Below are positions 30,401 to 64,000 of a DNA stretch of 64,000 nucleotides, one piece after another. Below the pieces are notes generated by a model. The model had not been told where the DNA came from. It was given only the letters and a program-made list of their open reading frames with translations, and ran no database searches. Position numbers and translations under genes: made by a program. The stretch's first letter is position 1. Each line of letters begins with the position of its first letter. The stretch covers positions 119,211,593 through 119,275,592 of the forward strand of contig NC_090378.1 in the NCBI RefSeq assembly GCF_036365525.1. Direction: 5' to 3'. Source of the DNA: Heterodontus francisci (taxonomy: Eukaryota).

Positions 30401-31006
30401 CCCTGGGGGAGAACACAATGTCCAGATGGAGCTGTCCTGGGGGAGAACACAATGTCCAAATGGAGCTGTCCTGGGGAAGAACACAATGTCCAGATGGAGC
30501 TGCCCTGGGGGAGAACACAATGTCCAGATGGAGCTGCCCTGGGACGGAACACAATGTCCAGATGGAGCTGCCCGGGGGGAGAACACAATGTCCAGATGGA
30601 GCTGTCCTGGGGAAGAACACAATGTCCAGATGGAGCTGCCCTGGGGGAGAACACAATGTCCAGATGGAGCTGTCCTGGGGGAGAACACAATGTCCAGATG
30701 GAGCTGCCCTGGGGAAGAACACAATGTCCAGATGGAGCTGCCCTGGGACGGAACACAATGTCCAGATGGAGCTGTCCTGGGGGAGAACACAATGTCCAGA
30801 TGGAGCTGCCCTGGGACAGAACACAATGTCCAGATGGAGCTGTCCTGGGACAGAACACAATGTCCAGATGGAGCTGCCCTGGGACGGAACACAATGTCCA
30901 GATGGAGCTGCCCTGGGACAGAACACAATGTCCAGATGGAGCTGCCCTGGGACAGAACACAATGTCCAGATGGAGCTGTCCTGGGACAGAACACAATGTC
31001 CAGATG
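24401..31006. repeat. 34-bp minisatellite array (GTCCAGATGGAGCTGCCCTGGGACAGAACACAAT)n, ~194 copies
   Basis: Direct tandem repetition with higher-order blocks. Confidence 0.98.
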
Positions 31007-39870: not shown

Positions 39871-39939
39871 AACCCACCAAATGACTGCACTGTGTAATAC
39901 ACACATCCTTAGACATACACACCTACTGAGAGTACTGGA

Positions 39940-40368
39940 TAGCTATAAAGAGAGACTGGATAGGCTAGGGTTGTTTTCCTTCGAGCAGAGAAGGCTGATG
40001 GATGACCTGATTGAGGTATATAAAATTATGAGGTGCATTGATAGGATAGATAGGAAGAAACCTTTTGCCTTAGTGGAGGGGTCAATAACCAGTGTGCATA
40101 GATTGAAGCTAAGAGGCAGGAGGCTTAGAGGAAAAGAATTTTCACCCAGAGGGTGGTGCGAATCTGGAACGCACTGCCTGAAGACTTGGTAGAGGCAGGA
40201 ACCCTCACAACATTTAAGATGTATTTAGATGAGCACTTGAAATGCCATAGCATACAAGGCTACGGGCCAAGTGCCAGAAAATGTGATTAGAATAAATCGG
40301 TGCTTGATGGTTGGCAAAGACACGATGGGCTGAAGGGCCTGGTTCTGTGCTGTATAACTCTATGATTC
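39940..40368 (+). mobile_element. CR1 3' fragment inside the 45-bp array
   Basis: SYKERLDRLGLFSFEQRRL; 3' UTR ends CTCTATGATTCTA. Confidence 0.9.
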
Positions 40369-40369
40369 T

Positions 40370-41650
40370 ATAACACACCCACACTCAGAATCACACACCT
40401 ACAGACAGTACTGGGTAACCCACACACACTCAGAGACACAAACCTACAGACAGGACAGGGTAACCCACACACACTCAGACACACACACCTACAGACAGTA
40501 CTGGGTAACCCACACACACTCAGAGACACACACCTACAGACAGGACAGGGTAACCCACACACACTCAGACACACACACCTACAGACAGTACTGGGTAACC
40601 CACACACACTCAGAGACACACACCTACAGACAGGACAGGGTAACCCACACACACTTAGACACACACACCTACAGACAGGACAGGGTAACCCACACACACT
40701 CAGACACGCACACTTACAGACAGTATAGGGTAACCCACACACACTCAGACACACACACCTACAGACAGTACTGGGTTACCCACACACACTCAGACACACA
40801 CATCTACAGACAGTACAGGGTAACCCACACACACTCAGATACACACACCTACAGACAGTACAGGGTAACCCACACACACTCAGACACACATACCTACAGA
40901 CAGTACTGGGTAACCCACACACACTCAGACACACACACTGACATACAGTCCTGGGTAACCCACACACACTCAGACACACACACCTCCAGACAATACAGGG
41001 TAACCCACACACACTCAGACACACACACCTACAGACAGTACAGGGTAACCCACACACACTCAGACACACACACCTACAGACAGTACAGGGTAACCCACAC
41101 ACACACAGACACACACACCTACAGACAGTACTGTGTAACCCACACACACTCAGACACACACACCGACATACAGTACTGGGTAACCCACACACACTCAGAC
41201 ACACACACCTCCAGACAATACAGGGTAACCCACACACACTCAGACACACACACCTACAGACAGTACAGGGTAACCCACACACACTCAGACACACACACCT
41301 ACAGACAGTACAGGGTAACCCACACACACACCTACAGACAGTACTGTGTAACCCACACACACTCAGACACACACACCGACAGACAGTACAGGGTAACCCA
41401 CACACACACAGACACACACACCTACAGACAGTACTGTGTAACGCACACACACTCAGACACACACAGCAACATACAGTACTGGGTAACCCACACATACTCA
41501 GACACACACACCTACAGACAGTACAGGGTAACCCACACACACTCAGACACACACACCTACAGACAGTACAGGGTAACCCACACACACGCAGACACACACA
41601 CCTACAGACAGTATTGGGTAACCCACACACACTCCGAAACACACACCTAC
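40370..41650. repeat. 45-bp minisatellite, subarray B (CCTACAGACAGTACAGGGTAACCCACACACACTCAGACACACACA)n, ~28 copies
   Basis: Direct tandem repetition; variant consensus of subarray A. Confidence 0.96.
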
Positions 41651-42170
41651 AGGATGTAAATGTGTTGGAATCAGTTCAGAGAAGGTTTATTAGACTAATA
41701 CTTGGAATGTGCAGGTTTTCCTCTGAGGAAAGGTTGGACAGGTTAGGTTTATATCCACTGGAGTTTAGAAGAGTAAGAGGTGACTTGATGGAGACATATA
41801 AGATTCCTGAGGGGTTTTGACAGGGTGGATGTGGAAAGGTTGTTTCTTCTTGTTGAAGAAACTAGAACTTGGGGTCACTATTTAAAAATAAGGTGTCACC
41901 CATTTAATACAGAGTTGAGAATTCTTTTATTTCCAAGGGTCGTGACTCTTTGGAACTCTCTTTCTCAAAAGGCGATGGAAGCAGAGTCTATAAATATTTT
42001 TAAGGCAGAGGTGGATAGATTCTTGATAAGCAAGGGGGTGAAAGGTTATCATGGGTAGGAGGGAATGTGGTGTTGAGATTACAATCAGATCAGCCATGAT
42101 CTTATTGAATGGTGGAGCAGGTTCGAGGGGCCGAGTGGCCTACTCCTGCTCCTAATTCATATGTTTGTAT
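41651..42170 (+). mobile_element. CR1 3' fragment
   Basis: LESVQRRFIRLI...RLDRLGLYPLEFRRVRGDL. Confidence 0.9.
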
Positions 42171-42420
42171 TTATGTTTGTAATCAAATCTTATGCTAATG
42201 TGCTATTGATTGAGAGTTCAACCAGCCAATCATTAGAATCACTTGCTGAAATACAGCCAATCAACTGACAGGAATGTGGGACATTTCCAAAGTACTCCCG
42301 AGACATTTACTGAATATTCTTAATGTTTATTACCTTTTACAGATTTACACTTACAGTAAAAAGACTTGAATAAACAGCTCAGTGAGAGGAAGCTGGAGAA
42401 ATTCACAGGGAGAATGAAGG

Positions 42421-42426
42421 TTTATT
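42421..42426 (-). terminator. Probable polyadenylation signal (AATAAA) of the kappa C exon; an alternative lies at 42326-42331
   Basis: TTTATT on +, about 430 bp past the stop codon. Confidence 0.7.
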
Positions 42427-42855: not shown

Positions 42856-43184
42856 CTACACACATTCTGATCTGCTCACACTCTTACTGAGGGGAGAGGA
42901 CAGGGTCTCGTGGGTGAGGGCACAGGAGAAGCGGGCGTTGGACTCCCAGTCAGAGCCAGAGAGGGTCAGCAGGCTGCTGACACTGTAGGTGCTGTCCGAA
43001 GCTCGCAGGTAATTGCTGGTCTGAACTCCGGCCGAAATGGCTGCACCGTCCTTCTTCCACTCCACCCCCACTTCATCGGGATAGAAGTGATCGGCAAGGC
43101 ACACCAGGGTGGCAGTGCCCTTGGCCTTGACCTCCTCCGGCGAGGGGGGCATCAGGGTCAGTGTGGGTTGAGACTTCTCTCGGC
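42856..43184 (-). CDS. IGKC: Immunoglobulin kappa-type (shark type III/NS4-like) light-chain constant exon, intact
   Basis: Polypyrimidine TTTCAG acceptor, phase 1. Reads (S)REKSQPTLTLMPPSPEEVKAKGTATLVCLADHFYPDEVGVEWKKDG...STYSVSSLLTL..DW...FSCALTHETLSSPLSKSVSRSECV*. Has both C1 cysteines, the conserved Trp and the penultimate inter-chain Cys. Confidence 0.97.
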
Positions 43185-43214
43185 CTGAAAGAGAAGAGAA
43201 AAACTGTTAATCAC

Positions 43215-43450
43215 TGCATGTTTGTGTATTTCTGTGTTCTATTTGTATATTTTTTGCTCTCTGTATATATTTGTGTGTTTTATGTATATATTTGTGTCTT
43301 TTGTCGGTATATTTGTGTGTCCTCTGTATATATTTGTGTGTTTCATGTATTTATTTGTGTGTTCTGTCTGTACATTTGTGTATTCTCTGTGTATATTTGT
43401 GTGTTCTATGTGTATATTTATGTGTATGTTTCTGTGGGTGTTTCTGTGTT
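43215..43450. repeat. Degenerate ~20-bp TG/TA-rich low-complexity repeat just upstream of the C acceptor
   Basis: TGTATATTTGTGTG-like units. Confidence 0.85.
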
Positions 43451-43644
43451 TGGAATTGTCACATCAGATAACAGACAGCTGAGTTAATGAACTGCAGCTG
43501 GTGTTGAATCGTTAGAAATGAGCACCATCACTTCTTAATTTGCCTCGCTTGCTAGGTTTAGTCTAAAATACAAAGACAGTGGATGGTTTGATGTTCAACT
43601 GGTTAAATTGTGTTTGACTGCTCTTGGAAGTATGATATGGTAGT

Positions 43645-44492
43645 TTTTTTTATTCATTCATGGGATGTGGGCGTCGCTGGCCAGGCCAGCATTTATTGCC
43701 CATCACTAATAGCCCTTGAGAAGGTGGTGGTGAGCTGCCTTCTTGAACTGCTGCAGTCCATGTGGGGTAGGTACACCCACAGTGCTGTTAGGCAGGGAGT
43801 TCCAGGATTTTGACCCAGTGACAGTGAAGGAACGGCGATATAGTTCCAAGTCAGGATGGTGTGTGGCTTGGAGGAGAACTTGCAGGTGGTGGTGTTCCCA
43901 TGCAACTGCTGGCCTTTCCTCCTAGGTGGCCAGCCTTTGACCTGCTCTTGTAGCCACAGTATTTACAGGGCTACTGCAGTTCAGGTTCTGGTCAATGGTA
44001 ACCCTCAGGATGTTGATAGTGGGGGATTCAGCGATCGTAATGCCATTGAATGTCAAGGGGAGATGGTTAGATTCTTTCTTATTTGAGATAGTCATTGCCT
44101 TTCACTTGTGTGACGCGAATGTTACTTGTTACTTATCAGCCCAAGCGTGGACAGTGTCCAGGTTTTGCTGCATTTCTAGATAGTCTGTTTCCGTTTCTGT
44201 GGATTCGCGAATGGTGCTGAAGGATGTGCAATCATCAGCGAACATCCCCTCTTCTGACCTTATGGTGGAGGGAAGGTCATTGATGAAGCAGCTGAAGATG
44301 GTTGGGCCTAGGACACTATGCTGAGGAACTCCTGCAGTGACGTCCTGGAGCTGAGATGATTGACCTCCAACAACCACAGCTATCTTCCTTTGTGCTAGGT
44401 ATGACTCCAAACAGTCGAGAGATTTCCCCCTGATTCACACTGACTCTAGTTTTGCTCGGGCTCCTTGATTCCAGACTCAAATGCTGCCTTGA
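43645..44492 (-). mobile_element. Second-family CR1/L2-group LINE fragment with an internal deletion, in the J-C intron
   Basis: AGVPQHSVLGPTIFSCFINDLPS..MFADDC. Confidence 0.88.
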
Positions 44493-44494
44493 TG

Positions 44495-47400
44495 ACAGTT
44501 ATTACTGAAATGAGTCTGAAAGAAGGGCAGGAATGGCAGCTCAATATTCCTGATACTGAGTTTCCCAACGGGATAGAGAGGGAGAGAAAAAAGGAGAAGG
44601 GTTTCACAATATTAGTCAAAAGAAAAAATCGCAGCTGTGAGGAGGGATGATATTCAAGCAGGATCATCGAATGAGGACATCTGAATGAACGTAGGAACAA
44701 AAAAGGGGCAATCACATTGCTGCACTATATACAGACCAGGGGTCGGTAACCTTTATTACCTGAAGAGACTGTTTTCAAAAATATTACCTAAAATAAAAAC
44801 TACTGGCAGTGTCAAGACCAAAATTCAGCATTTCTAAACCAAATACCTTCTAAATTGCCAAGTGTCTCTGGTAGAATGCACACTTTGTATATATAATAAA
44901 TAAAATACATGTATTGAATTTATGTATCAATAGAAAAAAAGTCAAAATCAGAATAGGTTTCACTCTGAATTATTGCATTTTTTTGACTTGTTTTTGTATA
45001 ATTTTGTCAGTAAAGTCAAAATTTAAAAAAAAAATTTAAATTCAGATGTGCAGAATTAAGACAATTTTTTCAGCTATTGATTCTCGTAATAAAAAAGAAG
45101 TTTCTAATAGCAGAATAATTTATCATCTCAGTGATATTAGAAACAATAATGGTCACAAACATAAAAGCTGTTCCTCCAATGGAAGCTGTACCACTCAAAC
45201 AAGTTCATTTAGACAATGATGATGCTTTTCATTTAAATAATCATTTGAAACTATAAAGTACAACATAATGATTAGCCTTTTATCCCCACAATAAAAACAC
45301 AGTTTACTTTCCTTGACTGAATTTTTTCGGCCTTTTTCATGTTAATGTGATCCAACTGGAAAAGGTTGGCAGCTGTAAATGAGCTGTTAAAGAGTCACAT
45401 GTGGCTCCGGAGCCGCAGGTTCCAGACTCCTGCTATAGACCCTCAAACAGTCAGAGGGAGAGAGAAGAGCAAATGTGTCGGCAAATTACTGAAAAGTGCA
45501 GAAACAACAGGCCAGTAATAGGAGGGGATTTCAACTTTCCAAATATTAACTGGGATAAATTCAGTATAAAAGGTGCAGAGGGTGCAGAATTCCTAAAATA
45601 CATTCGGGAGAACTTTTCTCATCAGTAGAAAGACCAACAAGAGAAGATACAGTTCTGGACTTAGTTTTCAGGAATGAATCTGGGCAGGTGGAAGGGGATC
45701 AATGTGAGAGTGTTTTAGTGGCAGTGATTATAATTCAGTTAGATTTAGAGCAGTTATAGAAAAGGATAAAGATGGACCAAGAGTAAAAGTTTTAAACTGG
45801 GGAAAGGCCAATTTTACTAAGCTGAGATGTGATTTGTCAGAATTAGACTGGAAACAGCTACTTGAAGGTAAATCAGTGTCAGAGCAGTGGGAGGCATTCA
45901 AGGAGGAGATAGTGAGGGCTCAGAACAAACATGTTCCCACAAAGAAAAAGGGTGAGACTCCCAAATCTCCATTTACCACAGATGGTAAAGAGCATACACA
46001 GTAGGATAAGGTACAAAAGGGAAACTTATATCGGATACTGAGATCTTGATACTGCAGAAAACCTGGAGAAGTGTAGAGAGTTCAGGGGTGAAATTGAAAA
46101 GGAAATTAGGGAAACAAAGAGAGGACATGAAAAAATATTAGCTAGTAAAATCAAGGAAAACCCAAAGATGTTTAATAAATACATAAAGAGCCGGAGAGTC
46201 ACTAAGAAAAGAGCGGGGTAAATTGGAGTCCAAAAACCTAACCTGTGTGTGGAGGCGGAGGATGTGGACATGTTTCTGAATGAATACTTTGTGCCTTTTT
46301 TCACAGAGAGTGACAAAGCAGACATTGTAGTGAAGGAGGAGGAGTGTGAAATCTTGGATGGGATAAACTTAGTGAGGGAGGAAATATTAAGGTGTTTCAC
46401 ATCCTTGAAAATGGATAAATCACCAGGCCCAGGTGAAATGTATCCCAGGCTGCAAAGGAAGCAATGGGAGAAATAGCGGAGGCTCTGATCCTCATTTTCC
46501 AATTCTCTCTGGTTAAAGGCATGGTGCCTGAGGACTGGAGGACTGCTAATGTTGTACTGTTGTTTAAAAAGGAAAGAATGGATGGACCAAGTAATTACAG
46601 ATCAGTCAGCATAACCTCGGCAGTGGGAAAATTATTGGAAAAAGTTCTGAGAGACAGTAAAAACCATCATTTAGAGAAACACGGGATTAATTCAGGACAG
46701 TCAGCATGGATTTGTTAAGGGAAGTTTGTGTCTGACTAACGATTACATTTCATGAGGAGGTTACAAGGAGTGTCAAAGTGGGCGTCATGTTTGAAAGAGT
46801 CTACATGGATTTTAGCAAGGCCTTTGATAAGATCCCACATGGCAGACTGGTCAGAAAATTAAAAGCCCATGGGATCCAAGGAAAAGTGGGAAATTGGATC
46901 AAAAATTGAGTCAGTGACAGGAAGCAAAGTTTTATTGTCGGTGGGTGTTTTTGTGAGTGGAAAGCTGTTTTCAGTGGGGTTCTGCAGGGCTCAGTACTGG
47001 GTCCACTGCTGATTATAGTGTCTTTCAATGATTTAGATTTAAATGGAAGGGGTATTAAGAAGTTTGTAGATGATACAAAAATAGGCCTTGCGGTTGATAA
47101 TGAGGAACAAGGCTGCAGACTGCAGGAAGATATCAATGGACTGGTCAGGTGGGCAGAAAAATAGCAAATGGAATTCAGTCCAGAGAAATGTGAGGTAATG
47201 CATTTGGGGAGGACAAACGAGGCAAAGGAATATCCAATAAATGGGATGATACTGAGAAGTGTAGAGGAACTGAGGGACCTTGGAGTTCATGTCCACAGAT
47301 CCCTGAAGGTAGCAGGACAGCTAGATAAGGTGGTTAAGAAGGCTTACGGGATGCTTGCCCTTATTCGCTGAGGCCTGGAGTATAAGGTTAAGGAGGTTAT

Positions 47401-47990
47401 GCCAGAACTGTAGAAAACACTAGTTAGACCACAGCTAGAAAACTGTGTACAGTTCTGGTTACCACATTACAGGAAGGATGTGATCAAACAAGAGGGGGTA
47501 CAGAGGAGATTTACGAGGATGTTACCAGGAATGGAGAATTTTACCTATGAGGAAAGATAGGATCGGCTGGGATTGTTATCTCTGGAACAGAGGAGACTGA
47601 GGGGAGATTTAATTGAGGTGTATAAAATTATGAGGGGCCTAGATAGAGTGGATAGGAAGGACCTACTTCCCGCAGCAGAGAGGTCAATAACCCAGCGGCA
47701 TAGATTTAAATTAATTGGTGGAAGGATGAGAGGTGAATTGAGGAGTAATTTTTTCACCCAGAGGGTGTTGGGGGTCTGGAATTCACTGCCTGAAAGGGTG
47801 GGAGAGGCAGAAACTCTCATCACATTGAAAAAACACTTGGATATGCACTTGAGGTGCCGAAACCTACAGGGATATGGGAATAAGAGCTGGAAAGTGGAAT
47901 TAGGTTTGTTAACTCATTTTCAGCTGGCATGGAAACCATGGGCCGAATGGCCTCATCTGCATTGTAAATCTTTCTATGTTTCTCTGTTTA
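44495..47990 (+). mobile_element. Long degraded CR1 ORF2 (endonuclease plus RT plus 3' UTR), antisense within the J-C intron
   Basis: GGDFNFPNINW, KSPGPGEMYPR, NYRSVS, FTQRVLGVWNSLPE. Confidence 0.93.
44737..45432. mobile_element. hAT-Charlie-type non-autonomous element nested in the CR1
   Basis: Termini CAGGGGTCGGTAACC...GGTTCCAGACTCCTG; degenerate 8-bp TSD ATACAGAC/CTATAGAC; the CR1 resumes on both sides. Confidence 0.8.
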
Positions 47991-48421
47991 AACGTCTCGA
48001 ATGAAGGTTTGTCACCAATTCAGCACTGAAATGGTTAATAGTAAGAGTGTTTAAAGACTCAGTGTCCCTTTAAGACACTGTTAACCTGACAGGAAGCTTG
48101 AACTGTAGATCAGTCTATCTGGAGGAAACAGGCTCAGTGTTAACAAATCTCAGATCACACACACATCCGGAGAACTTTCTCCGAGAACACTGGAGCAGAC
48201 TTGTATCAACACATGTCAGAAAGGATTCATGTTGGGTGTCGGTGTGGAAGGTTTTCGATTTCATTTAAAACCTTCTTGTCCAACACTGGGGTGAGGTCAA
48301 GGGTGAGGTTATAATCAGTCTCAGTGTACTGGGGTCAGGCAGGGTCACTGCTCCAAATGATCCCATGACCCCTGGAAGGTGAGAGTGTGCGCGAGGGTCA
48401 GGATCAGGAGCCTCCAAACTC

Positions 48422-48820
48422 AAAGAAAGACTTGCATTTCTATAGTGCCTGTCACCACCTCAGGATGTCCCAAAGTGTTTTATGGCCAATTGTGCACAGC
48501 AAGATCCCAGACAGCTGAGTGATAATGAGCAGATAATCTGATTTTCAGTGCTGTTGGTTGAGTGATAAACATTGTCCAGAACACCGAGGAGAACTCCCCT
48601 GCTCTTCTAATAGCGCAGTGGGATCCTTTACATTCACCTGAGAGGGCAGACGTCAGTTTGTCTCATCTGAAAGACAGCACCTCTGACAATGCAGCACTCC
48701 CTCAATACTGCACTGCAGTGTCAGCCTGGATTATGTGCTCCAGTCTCTGGAGTGGGACCTGAAGCCACGACATTCTGACTCAGAGGTGAGAGTGTTACCC
48801 ACTGAGGCAACACTAACACC
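48422..48820 (-). mobile_element. DeuSINE (SacSINE1-like); a second partial copy lies at ~49220-49423
   Basis: Reverse complement of the Deu core GGAGTGCTGCATTGTCAGAGGTGCTGTCTTTCAGATGAGAC; tRNA-like head; shared 3' tail AAGAAAGACTTG(C/T)ATTT. Confidence 0.75.
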
Positions 48821-49423
48821 TCACAGTCGAATAGCCTGCCATTCTCAACCTCCCGGCTCACACTTGGAGGAATGAGGCCACTTGGGGAGGGTGGAGCTGT
48901 GCCCCAGCCAGAGATAGTGCCTTCAGGAGAGAGATGGAGAGCAGATTGTGGGAGACCTGTAGTCTAGAGGGGTGACATTTAACCAGTCGATGGCAGGTGC
49001 TGAGCCCTTTCCCCGTAAGTATTATGTAAGTTGATGGGGAAAGTGGGAGGGGCACTAGAGTAACACCTTTGTTGCTGCTGAAACTCTTGCTATCTGCTCG
49101 GACATGTATAATAAACACACAGACAAATCAGACAAACATTAGTCAGTTTTCTGTGGATTTTCTGCTGGGTTCAGCTTTAATCAACAGGGGTATTGTGGGA
49201 GCTCCCGGTTAATAAAAAGAGAAGAAAGACTTGTATTTATATCGAGTATTTCACACCTCAGGACCTCCCAAAGTCATTTACAGACAATGAAGGACTTGTT
49301 TAAAGAGCAGTCACTGTTGGAATGTAGGAAATGTGGCAGACAATTTGTGCACAGCAAGATCCCACAAACAGCAATGAGGTAAATGAACATTTTCAGTGAC
49401 GTCGGTTCAGAGATAAATATCAG

Positions 49424-50375
49424 TGTCATGCAGGCCCCCACCTGCCAAGAATGAGGCACATTAATTTCGCCATATGAACACTGCTTTTTAATCTGTTGCT
49501 GGAGTAAAGAAAGAACTTGTTTTTAAAAAACAGCACCACGCCCTTGACTGGAAAGACATTGGCATAATAACAGACAGTACTTGGAAGGGACAAAAGACCA
49601 TTTCCTGACAAATTCAATCCACAATGGACTTTTGATTACCAGACATTGAGGGTGGAGGAGCTCCCATTCCAGCTTGACTGCTAAGATGGCCGACTACACC
49701 ATCGGACATGGTCAGACCAGTTTAGTCACATGACTAACTGGCTGTTGTAGTTTTTTGAATTTGAACTTGCCACAGAGAATTTGAACTCAGAAAGCTGTTT
49801 GCTCCTGGACTGAAAAGACTTTTCAAGGCTGGCTTGCCACTGTCTCTCTCCCGTCGGCTTTCATCTCTCTCACCAGCTTCAGAAATCATTGAAGACATAT
49901 GAACCGCAAGAGGGAAAAGTCTCCCACAGTGAACAAAGTTTAAGAAGAATACTGGGCCCCAATGAAAAGCAAGATCTACCGACAAGCAAGGACTACAGTG
50001 AGCTCGAAGCACAGTAACAAAAACTCTCTTCAGAGATTGCCTCAAACCTCTGCACTTTATTTTTCTTCTGCTCTTTTCTGTCTCTATTTGCATGTGTGTA
50101 TCGCATATGCATGCTAGCATGGGGCATGGCGTGTATCCGTACGCGTTAACTGAATTAGAGTTTTAGTTTAAGTTTTAATAAATTTCACCTTTCTTCTTTA
50201 AACCTAAGAAAACCTGTTTGTGCTCATTTCTTTGCCTCACAATTGGAAAGCGGTGAACAAGGATTCACCGAGAAGGAGCTCAAAACACAGTGTGTTTCAA
50301 ATTAAATCTTGTTACAGTAAGACCAGGTGAAGGCTGTGAAAGACCCCGAGAGACTTTCATCACCTGGTCAGAACA
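49424..50375 (+). mobile_element. Solo LTR (~950 bp) in the J-C intron
   Basis: TGTCATG...GAACA termini, AATAAA at 50177, approximate TSD ATCAG/ATCGA; it interrupts the SINE copy. Confidence 0.65.
50086..50093. promoter_or_regulatory. Perfect Ig octamer ATTTGCAT (function unproven)
   Basis: Exact motif about 820 bp into the J-C intron, inside the solo LTR. Confidence 0.3.
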
Positions 50376-50910
50376 ATCGACCTGAACTCGACCCAAAGAC
50401 AAAGCAACTGAGAGTCTCCCCAAAACCCTGGAACACTGAAGCCACTGGATTGGGAGCCCTGCTGTCACTGTTTGTCATCAGAACTTTGACGAGATAAGCA
50501 GGGAGTGGACAGAACAGAGTTAAAGCTGGGGAAGGGGGAACCTCGGTGTCTCACTGTGCTGGTGCTGAGATCAGTTATATCAGAGACTGTGACAGAGACC
50601 CAGAGCTCACACTGAGACTGGCAGGAGTCTAGTGAGGGATTTCACTCCATGGAGCAGGAATGTGACCACAGTCTGCAAACGTCCAGATCTCCTCTACACA
50701 CTCGGTAAATGTTGGTTGCTTATATCTTGCTGGTTAAAGGGGGAATGTAACTAAAGAAATACAGCTGGGCACCCTGTTATACACAGTGCTCTTCAATGAA
50801 CCATTTCATTGACTGCAGCTCCTTACTAACACCTTCCACTATTCAGCATTTGTGTTTTAGAATGTTTCAGTATTTAAAGGATTAATAACGGAGGATTGAG
50901 GTTTACTTAC

Positions 50911-50945
50911 TCAGTCTGAGCTTGGTTCCTTTACCGAACGTTAAC
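50911..50945 (-). CDS. IGKJ: Immunoglobulin kappa-type J segment (LTFGKGTKLRL+S), unrearranged
   Basis: FGxG motif; donor A|GTAAGT, phase 1, splices in frame to the C exon (A+GC = Ser); adjacent RSS. Confidence 0.96.
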
Positions 50946-50984
50946 CACACTGACAGCTTCCAGTGCAGGGGCTGTACAATATCC
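50946..50984 (+). promoter_or_regulatory. Recombination signal sequence with 23-bp spacer: CACACTG-23-ACAATATCC
   Basis: Heptamer 50946-50952 (6/7), spacer 50953-50975, nonamer 50976-50984 (7/9). A 23-RSS on J is the kappa configuration. Confidence 0.92.
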
Positions 50985-51585
50985 TCTGCTCTCTGTTTCA
51001 CTCACTCACTCTCACCCTCTCTCTGTCTTTCACTGTCACTGTGTCTTTCTCTCTGTCACTCTTTGCCTGTGTGTATGTGTGTCTCTGTCTCTCACACTCT
51101 CTCCATATATATATATTTGTATCTGTCTCTATGTGTGCTTCTGTCTGTCTCTGTCTGTGTGTGTCGTTCACAGAGTGTTGCACTCTGTCTCTGCTACTTT
51201 GGGTTTCTCTCACATTCTGTCTCTCTCTCATTGTTTTCTCTCACTCTGTCTCTTTCACTCTCTCATTATGTCCCTCTCTCTCACTCCCTGTTACTCTGTC
51301 TCTGTCACACGCTCTCTCTCTCTCACACTCTCTCTCAATCTGTCTCTCTCTTTCTCTCACTCACTGTCTCTCTTTCTCACTCTCTCTCACTCTCTCTCTC
51401 TTTCTCACTCTCACTATCTCATTCAGTCTCACTCTGTCTCTATTTTTCTCCCTCTCGCTGTCTTTCTCTTTCTCTCTCTCTCACTCTCACACTTTGTCTC
51501 TCTTTCTCACTCTGTCTCTCTTTTTCTCCCTCTCACTCTCTCTCTCTTTCTCTCTCTCTCACTTTCTCTCTCTCTGTCTCTCACA
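50985..51585. repeat. Degenerate (TC)n microsatellite abutting the J RSS
   Basis: Direct observation. Confidence 0.95.
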
Positions 51586-52400
51586 GACTGGGATGAATTC
51601 TCCCGGTGCCATGGAGACGGGGATCTCATTTGGAGGTTGGGCAGGACTGGGAAAAATACGACGAGCCGTGTCAACATGGCTCCCTGACACATTCCCGCCT
51701 CCGGGTTACTTTCCCATGGGTGTACTGGGAACCGGTCATCTGCTGGCTCCATGGAGATGGGCAGACAATTAGAGCAATGAAGTTCACATTTAGGGGCCAT
51801 TTTTGAGCCGGTGCTGGTATTTTACCAACGTCGGAGCGGCCTCCCCACCCCCGAGTGTGGAGGCCGCCAGTTCAATGGAGGAGCCCTCCCGGCAGCAGGC
51901 CAGGGGACCATCGGAGACGGAGACTCTATGTCCCAATGACAGAGCTACAGGGATGAAAAGCTGCAGTCCCGCCTGTGAATAATCCTGTGGAGGAGTTTCC
52001 TAACCCTAACCCTCTTCAACCTGATGGCCCAACTGGCTTCAGCCCTTTGTATTTTACTATTCCTCTGCAGGCAGCCGAGGGCGTCTCCATGTTGAGGGGC
52101 CCTCACTCTCGCCTGCCTGTTTCAGCAGGGCCCACCTCTCCCGGTGGAGCTGCCAGCCTGACATCACTGTGGGCCCTCTGATTGGGCCTGCAGGCTCGGG
52201 AGCCTGACCGCCATCATTAATAGGACAGTGAGTGTGGAGGTGACCAATTAGGAGGCTGCCTCCCAGAAAGTTGCTCCGGCGAGTGCTGATGACATGGGCA
52301 GGCTCGGGACCCTCATACAGGCCAGACGTCAGAGTCCCAATGTCCACTGGGCCAACCAGCCATCTCTCTCTCTCACGCTGTCCCTCTTGTGCTCTTTCCC

Positions 52401-52559
52401 NNNNNNNNNNNNNNNNNNNNNNNNNNNNNNNNNNNNNNNNNNNNNNNNNNNNNNNNNNNNNNNNNNNNNNNNNNNNNNNNNNNNNNNNNNNNNNNNNNNN
52501 NNNNNNNNNNNNNNNNNNNNNNNNNNNNNNNNNNNNNNNNNNNNNNNNNNNNNNNNNNN
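52401..52559. other. Assembly gap (159 N) between TC-rich flanks
   Basis: Run of N. Confidence 1.
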
Positions 52560-52654
52560 CCCCCAATATCTCTCTTTCTGTCATTCTCTCTCTCCCACTG
52601 TCTCTGTTTCTCTCTCTCTCCTACTGTCTCTGCTTCACTCTCTCTCTCTGTTTG

Positions 52655-53300
52655 AATTCCATGCCGCCGTGCTTGGGAAAGTTGGGAATTCTACTTGTCG
52701 ATGATAAATCTTCCAGCTGCTCTTCCCACCACATCAGATGGAAAAACCTGGAGCCACTCAATTCCTGGAAAATGAAAATCTCCCAGCAAACCGAGCTCAC
52801 CTGCCTGTGCCCTGGAAAAAAGGGGAGGAGTGTTTCTGTAAATGTGATGTTTCTGTTGCTGACTCTGGTCTTCCTCATGGACCATTTGAAAACAGTGAGT
52901 TTCAGAGTCGGTGGATCATGTCTACATGGAGTGGGAGAGGTTGTGGCCCCTGTTCCATTATTTGAAGGGGCTGCTCCTCATCCTCTGGTTCTAATTCAGG
53001 CCCACGCTCCTGATCTTTGGCCACCCAGTGCAGAGGGGAGTGGGCAGGTTGGAGGCCCCTCCTCGTGGGTCTGCTCCTGGGCCTGGCCAAGGTGTCCATC
53101 CACTGGCCCGAGTTGGATGGGACCCATGGGGGTGGTGCCACTGGCTGCCAGTCTATCTACCACGGCTTTGTCCCCACCCGGGTGGCCCTGGAGAAGGAGC
53201 AGGGGGTGTCTGCTGGGTCACTTGAGGCCTTCAGGCTGCAGTGGGCACCACAGGGACAGGAGTGTGTAGTGGATAGTGAAAATAACATCAGGCTTTAATT
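52655..53300 (+). mobile_element. Tx1-type ORF2 3' fragment
   Basis: LLVGLLLGLAKVSIH..RVALEKEQGVSAGSLEAFRLQWAPQG, homologous to 33400-33680. Confidence 0.85.
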
Positions 53301-53774
53301 TGTTCAGTTTGCTTTCTATTTATGATTTCAGTTTTATTCATTTCGACACTTTTCTAAATTGGATTTTGATTGGTGAAAATTGTGTCAAGCAGATAGTCCA
53401 ATCAGATGAGAAGAAACCTGTTTCCATAGTAACTGACCTGGGGTGTCTGACCAGGGGTGGGGGGTCAATAATAATGATCAATAATTAGTCTGTGCTCATG
53501 AAGCGACTCCACCAGAACCCAGAGAGAATCGAATGAAGCAAAATGTCAAATCTCCAGAGCTGTGAGATTCTCACTGATGAAGACAGCAGCTCCTCGTCCT
53601 CTCTAAACTCCTCCATCCTTTCCCAATTCCTCACACCGTTCAGGGGAATGTTTCTGTCAACACTCTCATCGACACATGTGGCAGCACTGCACAAAACAGG
53701 AAATATTTCCCAGATATATAAGACTGGAGATTGAAGCAACTGTTTTAATACACCGTCTGCTTATTAGATAATAA

Positions 53775-56700
53775 ATATAACTGTGGGATGTGTCAGTACA
53801 GGAGGTGGGACTGTGTGTCCATTATTATATATTATATATAACTGTGGGATGTGTCAGTACAGGAGGTGGGACTGTGTGTCCATTATTATATATTTTATAT
53901 AACTGTGGGTTGTGTCAGTACAGGAGGTGGGACTGTGTGTCCATTATTATATATTATATAAAACTGTGGGATGTGTCAGTACAGGAGGTGGGACTGTGTG
54001 TCCATTATTATATATTATATAAAACTGTGGGTTGTGTCAGTGCAGGAGGTGGGACTGTGTTTCCATTATGATATATTATATATAACTGTGGGTTGTGTCA
54101 GTACAGGAGGTGGGACTGTGTGTCCATTATTATATATTTTATATAACTGTGAGATGTGTCAGTACAGGAGGTGGGACTGTGTGTCCATTATTATATATTA
54201 TATAAAACTGTGGGTTGTGTCAGTTCAGGAGGTGGGACTGTGTTTCCATTATTATATATTATATCTAACTGTGGGTTGTGTCAGTACAGGAGGTGGGACT
54301 GTGTGTCCATTATTATATATTATATATAACTGTGGGATGTGTCAGTACAGGAAGTGGGAATGTGTGTCCATTATTATATATTATATATAACTGTGGGACG
54401 TGTCAGTACAGGAGGTGGGACTGTGTGTCCATTATTATATATTATATCTAACTGTGGGATGTGTCAGTACAGGAAGTGGGAATGTGTGTCCATTGTCATA
54501 TATTATTTTATACTGTGGGATGTTTCAGTTCAGGAGGTGGGAATGTGTATCCATTATTATATATTATATATAACTGTGGGACGTGTCAGTACAGGAAGTG
54601 GGAATGTGTATCCATTATTACATATTATATATAACTGTGGGACGTGTCAGTGCAGGAAGTGGGAATGTATATCCATTATTATATATTATATATAACTGTG
54701 GGATGTGTCAGTGCAGGAGGTGGGACTGTGTATCCATTATTATATATTATATATAACTGTGGGACGTGTCAGTACAGGAATGGGGAATGTGTATCCATTA
54801 TTATATATTATTCTTTACTGAGGGATGTGTCAGTACAGGAGGTGGGACTGTGTATCCATTATTATATTTTATATATTACTGTGGGATGTGTCGGTGCAGG
54901 AGGTGGGACTGTGTATCCATTATTATATATAATTTTTTACTGTGGGACGTGTCAGTCCAGGAAGTGGGAATGTGTATCCATTATTATATATTATATAAAA
55001 CTGTGGGATGTGTCGGTGCAGGAGGTGGGACTGTGTATCCATTATTATATATTATTTTTTACTGTGGGATGTGTCAGTACAGGAGGTGGGAATGTGTATC
55101 CATTATTATATATTATATATTACTGTGGGACGTGTCGGTGCAGGAGGTGGGACTGTGTATCCATTATTATATATTATATATAACTGTGGGATGTGTCAGT
55201 ACAGGAGGTGGGACTGTGTGTCCATTATTGTATATTTTATATAACTGTGAGATGTGTCAGTACAGGAGGTGGGACTGTGTGTCCATTATGATATATTATA
55301 TAAAACTGTGGGTTGTGTCAGTGCAGGAGGTGGGACTGTGTTTCCATTATGATATATTATATATAACTGTGGGTTGTGTCAGTACAGGAGGTGGGACTGT
55401 GTATCCATTATTATATATTATATAAAACTGTGGGATGTGTCGGTGCAGGAGGTGGGACTGTGTATCCATTATTATATATTATTTTTTACTGTGGGATGTG
55501 TCAGTACAGGAGGTGGGAATGTGTATCCATTATTATATATTATATATTACTGTGGGACGTGTCGGTGCAGGAGGTGGGACTGTGTATCCATTATTATATA
55601 TTATATATAACTGTGGGATGTGTCAGTACAGGAGGTGGGACTGTGTGTCCATTATTGTATATTTTATATAACTGTGAGATGTGTCAGTACAGGAGGTGGG
55701 ACTGTGTGTCCATTATTATATATTATATATAACTGTGGGATGTGTCAGTCCAGGAGGTGGGACTGTGTGTCCATTATTCTATATTATATATAACTGTGGG
55801 ATGTGTCAGTACAGGAGGTGGGACTGTGTGTCCATTATTATATATTTTATATAACTGTGGGACGTGTCAGTACAGGAAGTGGGAATGTGTGTCCATTGTT
55901 ATATATTATTTTTTACTGTGGGATGTTTCAGTTCAGGAAGTGGGAATGTGTATCCATTATTACATATTATATATAACTGTGAGACGTGTCAGTACAGGAG
56001 GTGGGACTGTGTGTCCATTATTATATATTTTATATAACTGTGAGATGTGTCAGTACAGGAGGTGGGACTGTGTGTCCATTATGATATATTATATAAAACT
56101 GTGGGTTGTGTCAGTTCAGGAGGTGGGACTGTGTTTCCATTATGATATATTATATATAACTGTGGGTTGTGTCAGTACAGGAGGTGGGACTGTGTGTCCA
56201 TTATTATATATTATATATAACTGTGGGACGTGTCAGTACAGGAAGTGGGAATGTGTGTCCATTGTTATATATTATTTTTTACTGTGGGATGTTTCAGTTC
56301 AGGAAGTGGGAATGTGTATCCATTATTACATATTATATATAACTGTGGGATGTGTCAGTGCAGGAGGTGGGATTGTGTATCCATTATTATATTTTATATA
56401 TTACTGTGGGATGTGTCGGTGCAGGAGGTGGGACTGTGTGTCCATTATTATATATTATATATAACTGTGGGATGTGTCAGTACAGCAATTGGGAATGTGT
56501 GTCCAATATTATATATTATATATAACTGTGGGATGTGTCAGTGCAGGAGGTGGGACTGTGTGTCCATTATTATATGTTATATATAAATGTGGGACGTGTC
56601 AGTACAGGAGGTGGGACTGTGTGTCCATTATTATATATTATATATAACTGTGGGACGTGTCAGTGCAGGAGGCGTGACTGTGTGTCCATTATTATATATT

Positions 56701-59700
56701 ATATATAACTGTGGGATGTGTCAGTACAGGAGGTGGGACTGTGTGTCCATTATTATATATTATCTCTAACTGTGGGATGTATCAGTGCAGGAGGCGTGAC
56801 TGTGTGTCCATTATTATATATTTCTCTAACTGTGGGACGTGTCAGTACAGGAATTGGGAATGTGTATCCATTATTATATATTATATATAACTGTGGGACG
56901 TGTCAGTACAGGAAGTGGGAATGTGTATCCATTATTACATATTATATATAACTGTGGGATGTGTCAGTGCAGGAGGTGGGACTGTGTGTCCATTATTATA
57001 TATTATATATAACTGTGGGATGTGTCAGTACAGGAAGTGGGAATGTGTATCCATTATTACATATATATAACTGTGGGATGTGTCAGTGCAGGAGGTGGGA
57101 CTGTGTATCCATTATTATATTTTATATATTACTGTGGGATGTGTCAGTGCAGGAGGTGGGAATGTGTATCCATTATTATATATTATTTTTTACTGTGGGA
57201 TGTGTCAGTACAGGAGGTGGGATTGTGTATCCATTATTATATGTTATATATAACTGTGGGATGTATCAGTACAGGAGGTGGGATTGTGTATCCATTATTA
57301 TATGTTATATATAACTGTGGGATGTGTCAGTGCAGGAGGTGGGACTGTGTATCCATTATTATATATTATTTTTTACTGTGGGATGTGTCAGTACAGGAGG
57401 TGGGAATGTGTATCCATTATTATATATTATATATTACTGTGGGATGTGTCGGTGCAGGAGGTGGGACTGTGTATCCATTATTATATATTATTTTTTACTG
57501 TGGGATGTGTCAGTACAGGAGGTGGGAATGTGTATCCATTATTATATGTTATATATAACTGTGGGATGTGTCAGTGCAGGAGGTGGGACTGTGTATCCAT
57601 TATTATATATTATTTTTTACTGTGGGATGTGTCAGTACAGGAGGTGGGAATGTGTATCCATTATTATATATTATATATTACTGTGGGATGTGTCGGTGCA
57701 GGAGGTGGGACTGTGTATCCATTATTATATATTATTTTTTACTGTGGGATGTGTCAGTACAGGAGGTGGGAATGTGTATCCATTATTATATATTATATAT
57801 TACTGTGGGATGTGTCGGTGCAGGAGGTGGGACTGTGTATCCATTATTATATATTATTTTTTACTGTGGGATGTGTCAGTGCAGGAGGTGGGAATGTGTA
57901 TCCATTATTATATATTATATATAACTGTGGGATGTGTCGGTGCAGGAGGTGGGACTGTGTATCCATTATTATATATTATATATAACTGTGGGATGTGTCA
58001 GTACAGGAGGTGGGAATGTGTATCCATTATTATATATTATATATTACTGTGGGACGTGTCGGTGCAGGAGGTGGGACTGTGTATCCATTATTATATATTA
58101 TATATAACTGTGGGATGTGTCAGTACAGGAGGTGGGACTGTGTGTCCATTATTGTATATTTTATATAACTGTGAGATGTGTCAGTACAGGAGGTGGGACT
58201 GTGTGTCCATTATTATATATTATATAAAACTGTGGGTTGTGTCAGTGCAGGAGGTGGGACTGTGGTTCCATTATGATATATTATATATAACTGTGGGTTG
58301 TGTCAGTACAGGAGGTGGGACTGTGTGTCCATTATTATATATTTTATATAACTGTGAGATGTGTCAGTACAGGAGGTGGGACTGTGTGTCCATTATGATA
58401 TATTATATAAAACTGTGGGTTGTGTCAGTTCAGGAGGTGGGACTGTGGTTCCATTATGATATATTATATATAACTGTGGGTTGTGTCAGTACAGGAGGTG
58501 GGACTGTGTGTCCATTATTGTATATTTTATATAACTGTGAGATGTGTCTGTACAGGAGGTGGGAATGTGTATCCATTATTATATATTATTTTTTACTGTG
58601 GGACGTGTCTGTACAGGAGGTGGAAATGTGTATCCATTATTATATATTATCTTTAACTGTGGGATGTGTCAGTGCAGGAGGTGGGACTGTGTGTCCATTA
58701 TTATATATTATATATAACTGTGGGATGTGTCAGTGCAGGAGGTGGGACTGTGTATCCATTATTATATATTATTGTTTACTGTGGGATGTGTCAGTACAGA
58801 AGGTGGGAATGTGTATCCATTATTATATGTTATATATAACTGTGGGATGTGTCAGTGCAGGAGGTGGGACTGTGCGTCCATTATTATATATTATATATAA
58901 CTGTGGGACGTGTCAGTACAGGAAGTGGGAATGTGTGTCCATTGTTATATATTATTTTTTACTGTGGGATGTTTCAGTACAGGCAGTGGGAATGTGTATC
59001 CATTATTATATATTATCTTTAACTGTGGGATGTGTCAGTGCAGGAGGTGGGACTGTGTGTCCATTATTATATATTTTATATAACTGTGAGATGTGTCAGT
59101 ACAGGAGGTGGGACTGTGTGTCCATTATGATATATTATATAAAACTGTGGGTTGTGTCAGTTCAGGAGGTGGGACTGTGTTTCCATTATGATATATTATA
59201 TATAACTGTGGGTTGTGTCAGTACAGGAGGTGGGACTGTGTGTCCATTATTGTATATTTTATATAACTGTGAGATGTGTCAGTACAGGAGGTGGGACTGT
59301 GTGTCCATTATTATATATTATATAAAACTGTGGGTTGTGTCAGTGCAGGAGGTGGGACTGTGGTTCCATTATGATATATTATATATAACTGTGGGTTGTG
59401 TCAGTACAGGAGGTGGGACTGTGTGTCCATTATTATATATTTTATATAACTGTGAGATGTGTCAGTACAGGAGGTGGGACTGTGTGTCCATTATGATATA
59501 TTATATAAAACTGTGGGTTGTGTCAGTTCAGGAGGTGGGACTGTGTTTCCATTATGATATATTATATATAACTGTGGGTTGTGTCAGTACAGGAGGTGGG
59601 ACTGTGTGTCCATTATTATATATTATATATAACTGTGGGACGTGTCAGTACAGGAAGTGGGAATGTGTGTCCATTGTTATATATTATTTTTTACTGTGGG

Positions 59701-62700
59701 ATGTTTCAGTACAGGAGGTGGGAATGTGTATCCATTATTATATATTATATGTAACTGTGGGACGTGTCAGTGCAGGAAGTGGGACAGTGTATCCATTATT
59801 ATATATTATATATAACTGTGGGACGTGTCAGTACAGGAAGTGGGAATGTGTGTCCATTGTTATATATTATTTTTTACTGTGGGATGTGTCAGTACAGGAA
59901 GTGGGAATGTGTATCCATTATTACATATTATATATAACTGTGGGACGTGTCAGTGCAGGAAGTGGGACAGTGTATCCATTATTATATATTATATATAACT
60001 GTGGGTTGTGTCAGTACAGGAGGTGGGACTGTGTGTCCATTATTATATATTATATATAACTGTGGGACGTGTCAGTACAGGAAGTGGGAATGTGTGTCCA
60101 TTGTTATATATTATTTTTTACTGTGGGATGTGTCAGTACAGGAAGTGGGAATGTGTATCCATTATTACATATTATATATAACTGTGGGACGTGTCAGTGC
60201 AGGAAGTGGGACAGTGTATCCATTATTATATATTATATATAACTGTGGGATGTGTCAGTGCAGGAGGTGGGACTGTGTATCCATTATTATATATTATATA
60301 TAACTGTGGGATGTGTCAGTACAGGAGGAGGGACTGTGTGTCCATTATTGTATATTTTATATAACAGTGAGATGTGTCAGTACAGGAGGTGGGAATGTGT
60401 ATCCATTATTATATATTATTTTTTACTGTGGGACGTGTCTGTACAGGAGGTGGGAATGTGTATCCATTATTATATATTATATATCACTGTGGGATGTGTC
60501 AGTACAGGAGGAGGGACTGTGTGTCCATTATTGTATATTTTATATAACTGTGAGATGTGTCTGTACAGGAGGTGGGAATGTGTATCCATTATTATATATT
60601 ATTTTTTACTGTGGGACGTGTCTGTACAGGAGGTGGAAATGTGTATCCATTATTATATATTATCTTTAACTGTGGGATGTGTCAGTGCAGGAGGTGGGAC
60701 TGTGTGTCCATTATTATATATTTTATATAACTGTGAGATGTGTCAGTACAGGAGGTGGGACTGTGTGTCCATTATGATATATTATATAAAACTGTGGGTT
60801 GTGTCAGTTCAGGAGGTGGGACTGTGTTTCCATTATGATATATTATATATAACTGTGGGTTGTGTCAGTACAGGAGGTGGGACTGTGTGTCCATTATTAT
60901 ATATTATATATAACTGTGGGACGTGTCAGTACAGGAAGTGGGAATGTGTGTCCATTGTTATATATTATTTTTTACTGTGGGATGTTTCAGTACAGGAGGT
61001 GGGAATGTGTATCCATTATTATATATTATATGTAACTGTGGGACGTGTCAGTACAGGAAGTGGGAATGTGTATCCATTATTACATATTATATATAACTGT
61101 GGGACGTGTCAGTGCAGGAAGTGGGACAGTGTATCCATTATTATATATTATATATAACTGTGGGATGTGTCAGTGCAGGAGGTGGGACTGTGTATCCATT
61201 ATTATATATTATATATAACTGTGGGACATGTCAGTACAGGAATTGGGAATGTGTGTCCAATATTATATATTATATATAACTGTGGGATGTGTCAGTGCAG
61301 GAGGTGGGACTGTGTGTCCATTATTATATATTATATATAACTGTGGGACATGTCAGTACAGGAATTGGGAATGTGTGTCCAATATTATATATTATATATA
61401 ACTGTGGGATGTATCAGTACAGGAAGTGGGACTGTGTGTCCATTATTATATGTTATATATAAATGTGGGACGTGTCAGTACAGGAGGTGGGACTGTGTGT
61501 CCAATATTATATATTATATATAACTGTGGGACGTGTCAGTGCAGGAGGCGTGACTGTGTGTCCATTATTGTATATTATATATAACTGTGGGATGTGTCAG
61601 TACAGGAGGTGGGACTGTGTGTCCATTATTATATATTTCTCTAACTGTGGGACGTGTCAGTACAGGAAGTGGGAATGTGTATCCATTATTATATATTATA
61701 TATAACTGTGGGACGTGTCAGTACAGGAAGTGGGAATGTGTATCCATTATTACATATTATATATAACTGTGGGATGTGTCAGTGCAGGAGGTGGGACTGT
61801 GTATCCATTATTATATTTTATATATTACTGTGGGATGTGTCAGTGCAGGAGGTGGGAATGTGTATCCATTATTATATGTTATATATAACTGTGGGATGTG
61901 TCAGTGCAGGAGGTGGGACTGTGTGTCCATTATAATATATTATTTTTTACTGAGGGATGTGTCAGTACAGGAGGTGGGATTGTGTATCCATTATTATATA
62001 TTATATATAACTGTGGGATGTGTCGGTGCAGGAGGTGGGACTGTGTATCCATTATTATATATTATTTTTTACCGTGGGACGTGTCAGTCCAGGAAGTGGG
62101 AACGTGTATCCATTATTATATATTATATATAACTGTGGGATGTGTCGGTGCAGGAGGTGGGACTGTGTGTACATTATTATATATTATTTTTTACTGTGGG
62201 ATGTGTCAGTGCAGGAGGTGGGAATGTGTATCCATTATTATATATTATATATAAATGTGGGATGTGTCAGTGCAGGAGGTGGGAATGTGTATCCATTATT
62301 ATATATTATATATAACTGTGGGATGTGTCGGTGCAGGAGGTGGGACTGTGTATCCATTATTATATATTATTTTTTACTGTGGGATGTGTCGGTGCAGGAG
62401 GTGGGACTGTGTATCCATTATTATATATTATTTTTTACTGTGGGATGTGTCAGTACAGGAGGTGGGAATGTGTATCCATTATTATATATTATATATTACT
62501 GTGGGACGTGTCGGTGCAGGAGGTGAGACTGTGTATCCATTATTATATATTATATATAACTGTGGGATGTGTCAGTACAGGAGGTGGGACTGTGTGTCCA
62601 TTATTGTATATTTTATATAACTGTGAGATGTGTCAGTACAGGAGGTGGGACTGTGTGTCCATTATTATATATTATATAAAACTGTGGGTTGTGTCAGTGC

Positions 62701-64000
62701 AGGAGGTGGGACTGTGGTTCCATTATGATATATTATATATAACTGTGGGTTGTGTCAGTACAGGAGGTGGGACTGTGTGTCCATTATTATATATTTTATA
62801 TAACTGTGAGATGTGTCAGTACAGGAGGTGGGACTGTGTGTCCATTATGATATATTATATAAAACTGTGGGTTGTGTCAGTTCAGGAGGTGGGACTGTGT
62901 TTCCATTATGATATATTATATATAACTGTGGGTTGTGTCAGTACAGGAGGTGGGACTGTGTGTCCATTATTATATATTATATATAACTGTGGGACGTGTC
63001 AGTACAGGAAGTGGGAATGTGTGTCCATTGTTATATATTATTTTTTACTGTGGGATGTTTCAGTACAGGAGGTGGGAATGTGTATCCATTATTATATATT
63101 ATATGTAACTGTGGGACGTGTCAGTACAGGAAGTGGGAATGTGTATCCATTATTACATATTATATATAACTGTGGGACGTGTCAGTGCAGGAAGTGGGAC
63201 AGTGTATCCATTATTATATATTATATATAACTGTGGGATGTGTCAGTGCAGGAGGTGGGACTGTGTATCCATTATTATATATTATATATAACTGTGGGAT
63301 GTGTCAGTACAGGAGGAGGGAATGTGTGTCCATTATTGTATATTTTATATAACAGTGAGATGTGTCAGTACAGGAGGTGGGAATGTGTATCCATTATTAT
63401 ATATTATTTTTTACTGTGGGACGTGTCTGTACAGGAGGTGGAAATGTGTATCCATTACTATATATTATCTTTAACTGTGGGATGTGTCAGTGCAGGAGGT
63501 GGGACTGTGTGTCCATTATTATATATTATATATAACTGTGGGATGTGTCAGTGCAGGAGGTGGGACTGTGTATCCATTATTATATATTATTGTTTACTGT
63601 GGGATGTGTCAGTACAGAAGGTGGGAATGTGTATCCATTATTATATGTTATATATAACTGTGGGATGTGTCAGTACAGGAAGTGGGAATGTGTATCCATT
63701 ATTATATATTATATATAACTGTGGGATGTGTCAGTGCAGGAGGTGGGACTGTGTGTCCATTATTATATATTATATATAACTGTGGGACGTGTCAGTACAG
63801 GAAGTGGGAATGTGTGTCCATTGTTATATATTATTTTTTACTGTGGGATGTTTCAGTACAGGAAGTGGGAATGTGTATCCATTATTATATATTATATATA
63901 ACTGTGGGATGTGTCAGTGCAGGAGGTGGGACTGTGTGTCCATTATTATATATTATATATAACTGTGGGACGTGTCAGTACAGGAAGTGGGAATGTGTGT
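53775..64000. repeat. 61-bp satellite array (CTGTGGGATGTGTCAGTACAGGAGGTGGGACTGTGTGTCCATTATTATATATTATATATAA)n, >165 copies, runs off the window end
   Basis: Direct tandem repetition with 2-mer and 3-mer higher-order periods. Confidence 0.98.

Follow-up and report, generated by a model that had tools for sequence, protein, structure and literature searches.

A horn shark kappa light chain cluster with V and J 124 kb apart across a satellite array

The J-C unit, the array and the V gene

The 64,000-nucleotide stretch of horn shark (Heterodontus francisci) DNA considered here (the window; NC_090378.1, positions 119,211,593 to 119,275,592) contains the joining (J) segment and the constant (C) exon of an immunoglobulin (Ig) kappa light chain gene. 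An earlier description, made from the letters of the window and hereafter called the sequence-only reading, had presented this J-C unit as intact and unrearranged, with no variable (V) partner in view. We read 200 kb past the edge of the window, in "extended" coordinates that continue its numbering, and found the partner: an intact V gene with a perfect recombination signal sequence of the 12-base spacer type (12-RSS) ends 123,729 bases from the start of J, with a satellite array running continuously between the two. The J-C unit is part of a complete, unrearranged V-J-C kappa cluster and is not an orphan. The features of the cluster are as follows.

42326..42426, minus strand: two putative AATAAA polyadenylation-type signals, starting at 42426 and 42331
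42856..43184, minus strand: Ig kappa C exon, with AG acceptor, open frame and stop at 42856
43185..50910, GT..AG on the minus strand: J-C intron of 7,726 bases; runs X1, X2, X7 and X13 have contigs with the joint 43183/50910
50911..50945, minus strand: J kappa coding segment, reading LTFGKGTKLRL, with an adjoining GTAAGT splice donor
50946..50984, minus strand: 23-RSS of J, with CAC intact and a weak nonamer that is identical in 28 of 28 J segments
50985..53760, no strand: non-satellite portion of the V-J interval, 2.8 kb of GA-rich tracts and unique sequence
53761..64000 in the window and on to extended 174,638, no strand: 61-bp satellite array, ~121 kb, ~1,980 units
Extended 174,646-174,673 (L012:646-673), minus strand: perfect V kappa 12-RSS, outside the window, directly behind the array
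L012:674-1210, minus strand: V kappa gene with leader exon, 186-base intron and open V exon (Pfam V-set, E 1e-18)

For what lies inside the window, the sequence-only reading was accurate. J, its 23-RSS, the splice sites, C and the polyadenylation signals, which it had called functional-looking, are intact as judged by frames, motifs and Pfam domains. The C exon is open for 107 amino acids before its stop (Pfam C1-set, E 2e-23), and the spliced J-C product, LTFGKGTKLRLSREKSQ, has the frame previously written for it. Measured against the consensus, the J heptamer CACACTG has one mismatch and the nonamer ACAATATCC two. The AATAAA signals start 429 and 524 bases past the C stop, beyond the 42856 edge of the earlier coordinates. 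Horn shark kappa-like records match the C exon at 100%, a kappa secretory-form record from the horn shark at 95% and a nurse shark record at 85%; the isotype is assigned by such identity. A search of the PDB contributed nothing further. The reported absence of a V exon and a 12-RSS from the window also stands: a tblastn search with the locus's own V returned a single match, on the C exon (E 0.68), and an RSS scan of both strands found no 12-spacer signal at four or fewer mismatches. The gap reported 1.4 kb from J is a run of 159 N.

It is outside the window that the headline of "no V partner" fails. The signal of the distant V reads CACAGTG-12-ACAAAAACC; an octamer-like word lies ~115 bases upstream of the V ATG, and the V is 73-77% identical to bamboo shark gene models. 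The next J-C unit upstream has a V of its own. Within the array we found a 2.2-kb piece of a long interspersed nuclear element (LINE; L009:8972-10000 plus L010:1-1134; Pfam RVT_1, E 3e-23), which we take to be of the RTE type, and two shorter fragments of non-satellite sequence; the array has existed long enough to harbour LINE pieces. One of the explanations offered for the missing V, displacement by more than 13 kb through satellite expansion, describes the situation well, the V standing behind ~1,980 satellite units. The sequence-only reading had further named the finding that would overturn it, a normal V with a 12-RSS just past the satellite and used to the exclusion of others; of this the first part is observed, such a V being there. 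Its proposal to follow transcripts of this locus by single-nucleotide polymorphisms in the C exon founders on the nucleotide identity of C in 13 of the 28 clusters described next.

Twenty-eight clusters on one contig

Searches of the horn shark's own genome, which score best candidates only and could miss further diverged copies, returned 28 kappa C exons, 28 V exons and 28 J segments with flank, all on C8 between 115.67 and 124.82 Mb. Without exception they fall into V-J-C triplets, 28 in all: the minus strand carries 15 of these and the plus strand 13, head to head and with one orientation per arm; the cluster of the window is number 10. Throughout, V carries a 12-RSS and J a 23-RSS, and V, J and C of a cluster share one orientation, as in kappa genes of the type III/NS4 class. 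V and J are separated by 7,540 to 216,650 bases (median ~49 kb); no cluster is germline-joined, and none has its V and J less than 7.5 kb apart. In every cluster the satellite begins 5 bases past the V nonamer and ends 2.7-5.4 kb before J, and all 48 stretches from the middle of the intervals proved to be satellite (k-mer cover 0.77-1.00); clusters 3, 4, 6, 10, 22 and 26 were read end to end and the middles of most others were sampled, clusters 2, 12 and 19 excepted. The arrays range from 55 to ~3,500 units and total ~1.5 Mb, or 24,500 units.

The 61-bp satellite is essentially confined to these intervals. A 31-base word of the unit has 7,162 exact matches genome-wide, against ~7,900 expected, by rough extrapolation, from the kappa intervals alone, so that little room is left for satellite elsewhere. 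In nine control regions from other Ig loci of the same genome, satellite cover did not exceed 0.006. Two of these regions hold a germline-joined VJ, four have their signals 0.3-1 kb apart and one has a V within 5 kb of C; by the patterns used, no V was found in two of the nine (L095, L096) and no J in L093.

All 28 V frames are open and all 28 V heptamers read CACAGTG, 27 leader donors are GT, the C exons are open in 28 of 28 and the J heptamer keeps its CAC in 27. In cluster 4 the leader donor is AT instead of GT (L024), and in cluster 13 the J heptamer has gone from CAC to CAT with V and C intact (L059), so that a rearranged V13 would mark joining between clusters. The most diverged C exons are those of clusters 28 (L160) and 17 (L155), and identical V proteins occur in clusters 6 and 12, 18 and 24, and 19 and 25. 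Cluster 28, which has the longest array, shows no AATAAA in the ~680 bases read past its C stop; its array (L137) contains a 394-base reverse-transcriptase LINE fragment every ~3.5 kb, likely amplified together with the array. Automatic gene models already span V to J in some of the kappa clusters.

Some further observations concern the family at large. The horn shark kappa secretory-form record (P0087) is not assignable to one cluster: the first half of its C is of the common type, and the second half has five residues of cluster 17, four of them found in no other cluster, as in a recombinant allele or a chimeric clone. A true orphan kappa J on a different chromosome, C2 (125446242-125446356; L079:4700-4850), has an intact frame and an altered heptamer and donor context; it ends after ~25 bases in unrelated sequence, with no V or C by the patterns used in 10 kb. 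Another light-chain locus, on C46 at 16.27-16.87 Mb, comprises 37 C exons with a ~16-kb period, and in the two clusters read there the V and J signals lie ~380 bases apart, a contrast within one genome.

Probable rearrangement across the arrays and likely origin of the satellite

Evidence that these genes are used comes from sequencing runs, all examined as contigs; none is recorded as RNA, and their RNA status is a tool's guess. The J-C joint 43183/50910 appears in contigs of all four runs concerned, three of them RNA-like and from one sample of this species, the fourth from a related species. Loose ends of contigs at the 5' end of J read as kappa V third complementarity-determining regions (CDR3) in X1 and X2, and those at V give J sequence in X1 and X9. 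In X1 the V exon has a summed depth of more than 200,000, which drops to 150-370 on the signal and first satellite unit. Two DNA runs were uninformative: X16 (organism C) gave nothing on V and X3 stopped short of the RSS end. The kappa family thus rearranges V to J and splices J to C in RNA-like contigs and, as no kappa V in the assembly comes closer than 7.5 kb to its J, the recombination-activating gene (RAG) recombinase likely joins them across the arrays. For the window's own cluster the signs of rearrangement are suggestive only. A doublet found only in V10, V13 and V22 makes up 19% of summed depth, although contig depth cannot rank genes, and one loose-end consensus of 12 contigs lies one base from V10/22 and one base from V13, clusters that all have the window's J type (TTA-ACG-TTC, common to clusters 10, 13, 17, 22 and 28). 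All typable loose-end consensuses fit the V and J types of single clusters.

The satellite itself seems to have been derived from what stands behind the V signal. Translation through that signal gives HSETEPYKNLNTHSPTSCTDTSHSYI, with YTVRQSLTKTSIHTVPPPVLTHPTV in the next frame, and read-through kappa V gene models carry the RSS and first-unit peptides in bamboo, zebra and basking sharks and the cloudy catshark (4 of 12 bamboo shark proteins viewed; for the other three species, P0111, P0091, P0093, P0104, P0107 and P0108 among 30 records). Together with that of the horn shark these represent four orders. In a zebra shark model V, one copy of the motif, a glutamate- and arginine-rich tract and J follow one another within ~107 residues, possibly concealing a predicted intron, and the order is that of a horn shark cluster. 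Because the same peptides recur in the other sharks' models, the satellite unit is taken as an ancestral sequence common to the four orders; protein models of this kind cannot tell whether arrays exist in those sharks. Tandem copying on the spot, at a time before the clusters multiplied, is the likely source of the array. Conservation of the unit is no evidence of function, since the non-coding read-through upstream is likewise conserved (P0004, compared by eye). Other minisatellite arrays, with units of 23-45 bp and lengths of 1-27 kb, recur in the cluster flanks; because the duplicated block holds several such arrays, a repeat-prone passenger is the favoured view of the satellite. In the window itself, 36-, 34- and 45-bp arrays occupy positions 1-3662, 24401-31012 and 37672-41652, and downstream of C in the next cluster they recur with different lengths, up to 27 kb.

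We put at roughly three in four the probability that the locus is one complete, unrearranged V-J-C cluster in which V and J were driven 124 kb apart by a satellite grown in place, and in which RAG joins them by deleting the array. The motif behind the V signal would have been amplified in tandem once in the lineage and then copied along with the cluster, after which unequal exchange could have let array lengths drift between 55 and ~3,500 units; most likely the array is a tolerated passenger, like the other minisatellites of the duplicated block. A 12-RSS joins with a 23-RSS, and RAG would pair those of V and J with loss of 124 kb, mostly within a cluster. Bridging 7-217 kb would demand long-range synapsis, whether by looping, scanning or compaction of the array, something that compact shark clusters were supposed to do without.

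Several points weigh against this account. The runs, apart from being contigs of guessed RNA status, include three from organism A that amount to one sample, possibly the assembled animal; loose ends are seen as consensus only, which makes minority joins between clusters invisible. A base found only in V10/22 has a 5.7% share of summed depth, which does not rise above the 6-9% reached by letters present in no germline V; the doublet of V10, V13 and V22 alone exceeds that level. Array lengths come from one assembly, and clusters 10 and 22 are so nearly identical (~10 of 106,000 aligned bases differ) that one could be a haplotype duplicate. Finally, no cluster is without an array, which neutrality does not require, and the junction between units resembles a 23-RSS more closely than 98.8% of shuffled sequences do.

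Alternatives and comparison with known systems

A first alternative is that the locus works partly as a translocon, a V also joining the J-C units of downstream clusters and so providing combinatorial diversity and editing. This is plausible because V-J distances within clusters overlap those between clusters: from a V to the J of the next cluster is at least 105 kb, and of 26 such distances 6 fall short of the longest interval within a cluster (217 kb) and 2 short of the 124 kb of the window's cluster. All clusters of an arm share one orientation, and joins between light-chain clusters are reported in the zebrafish (PMC3014032). Against it, none of the typable loose-end consensuses demands a pair from two clusters, nurse shark heavy chain (IgH) genes join only within a minilocus (PMC2435157), and the locus shows 1:1:1 triplets with no surplus V, where a translocon has several V upstream of a shared J-C. 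We regard such joining as possible, though rather doubtful. A broader version, in which the locus has left the compact state altogether, long-range synapsis operates at every cluster, array length and cryptic 23-RSS tune the firing of each and V reaches neighbouring J-C units, appears unlikely to us; if true, the locus would stand, in a living species, midway between cluster and translocon, with editing, and a repeat would have brought it there.

The cryptic signals just mentioned arise where units meet: the tandem junction forms a weak 23-RSS look-alike in the orientation of the V signal, with four mismatches in a typical unit. One could envision an array selected as a regulator, its look-alikes acting as decoys or brakes on each cluster and aiding light-chain exclusion. 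The mammalian kappa-deleting element is a loose parallel. The array of the window's cluster has ~1,640 heptamer-23-nonamer sites at four or fewer mismatches (37 at three) and 18 perfect heptamers, and CAC occurs 7,624 times on the strand of the V signal against 110 on the opposite one; only 248 of 20,000 dinucleotide shuffles of the unit match its 23-RSS score, and the array is present in all 28 clusters and hardly elsewhere. There is also a precedent for low RSS activity in the mouse gamma satellite, where RAG is able to cut cryptic signals (Cowell et al. 2003, PMC2193808). It too is tandemly repeated and combines a CAC heptamer and 23 spacer with a weak nonamer; unlike it, the horn shark array separates V from J in an antigen-receptor gene. 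The pattern, however, was noticed post hoc, and the usual nonamer has no A-run. Only across the junction of two units does the look-alike arise, and the last, single-copy-like unit is without it, as expected of a by-product of tandem copying, and the 60-fold spread in array length suggests little constraint. Moreover, by the 12/23 rule a 23-signal cannot pair with the 23-RSS of J. Selection of this kind seems to us quite improbable, and the look-alike probably arose as a by-product, the chance that it has a function being real yet the smaller one. Look-alikes with a 12-base spacer were rejected, the best in the array having five mismatches. In the unit behind the V signal the best fit to a 14-letter CTCF motif had three mismatches, and 175 of 3,000 shuffles did as well.

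We consider it very unlikely that array lengths and the mirror copy of the window's cluster were inflated by assembly. Long satellites are hard to assemble, and clusters 9-10-11 (C8, 119.1-119.53 Mb) are mirrored by 23-22-21 (122.8-123.25 Mb) with V-J lengths that agree within 61-407 bases. Yet the arrays sampled contain no N, and their units differ from one another by ~10%; clusters 10 and 22, compared base by base, are colinear and nonetheless set apart by indels the size of a unit and by a single insertion, 0.7-1 kb long, of non-satellite sequence, and the shortest V-J interval, read end to end, still measures 7.5 kb. The ~10 differences between these two clusters were counted in four indel-free blocks that together make up the 106,000 bases, two further blocks with inner indels being excluded, and the pair represents either an inverted duplication of very recent date or a duplicate of haplotype origin. 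The remaining options of the sequence-only reading, that an absent V meant an orphan J-C unit open to V segments of other clusters or a V lost in the N run, are almost certainly wrong: although the window has no V, the V has been found, V, J and C alternate strictly at 28 each, and 159 letters are too few for a 300-base V exon plus signal, the same flanks standing 159 bases apart, with no V between them, in the near-identical sister cluster 22.

The cluster keeps the architecture of the nurse shark NS4 and horn shark type III kappa genes, with a single V, a single J and a single C, split V and J, and 12- and 23-RSS (PMC2193156; PMC5192425), and its V has the 186-base leader intron of NS4 (PMC2193156). 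It departs from them in its V-J interval, 124 kb here and 7.5-217 kb over the 28 clusters as against 502-524 bases in most NS4 genes (PMC2193156), and in having that interval filled by a locus-specific satellite; several nurse shark kappa genes are germline-joined, whereas none of the 28 is. With 123.7 kb in place of the ~0.5 kb of a compact shark minilocus, it stands as a novel form of shark kappa cluster. Shark IgH miniloci are similarly independent clusters at least 100 kb apart (PMC2435157), but their segments are ~400 bases apart and join within the minilocus, presumably with no locus contraction (PMC2435157; PMC12227049), while in horn shark kappa the distance within a cluster equals that between clusters. 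The zebrafish light chain (IgL) loci resemble ours in having many linked V-J-C clusters within mutual reach (PMC3014032) and differ in their inversional joins, V and J being oriented for deletion in horn shark kappa. Mouse Igk shares the long-distance joining of V to J and a near-consensus V 12-RSS (Zhang et al. 2024, PMC11153149); its translocon has many V and the CTCF-based Cer/Sis elements, whereas in horn shark kappa each J has a single V, the J nonamer is weak and the satellite unit contains no convincing motif for CTCF. A literature search, made at the level of listings and without supplements and some key shark Ig papers, turned up nothing on shark kappa genes whose V-J interval is long and filled with satellite.

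In the usual picture of shark Ig genes, segments lie a few hundred bases from one another and are joined within a cluster, perhaps without locus contraction (PMC2435157). Here, for a whole kappa isotype, the V-J distance is 15 to 430 times as great, and the isotype nonetheless appears to give rise to V-J-C transcripts. One practical prediction is that germline V-J polymerase chain reactions and short-read assemblies will miss these kappa genes. Since 28 near-identical clusters differ mainly in the length of their spacer (7.5-217 kb), they form a natural series that bears on looping versus RAG scanning in sharks and on the change from cluster to translocon, and with which one can test directly what keeps joining inside a cluster and whether it is restricted in this way.

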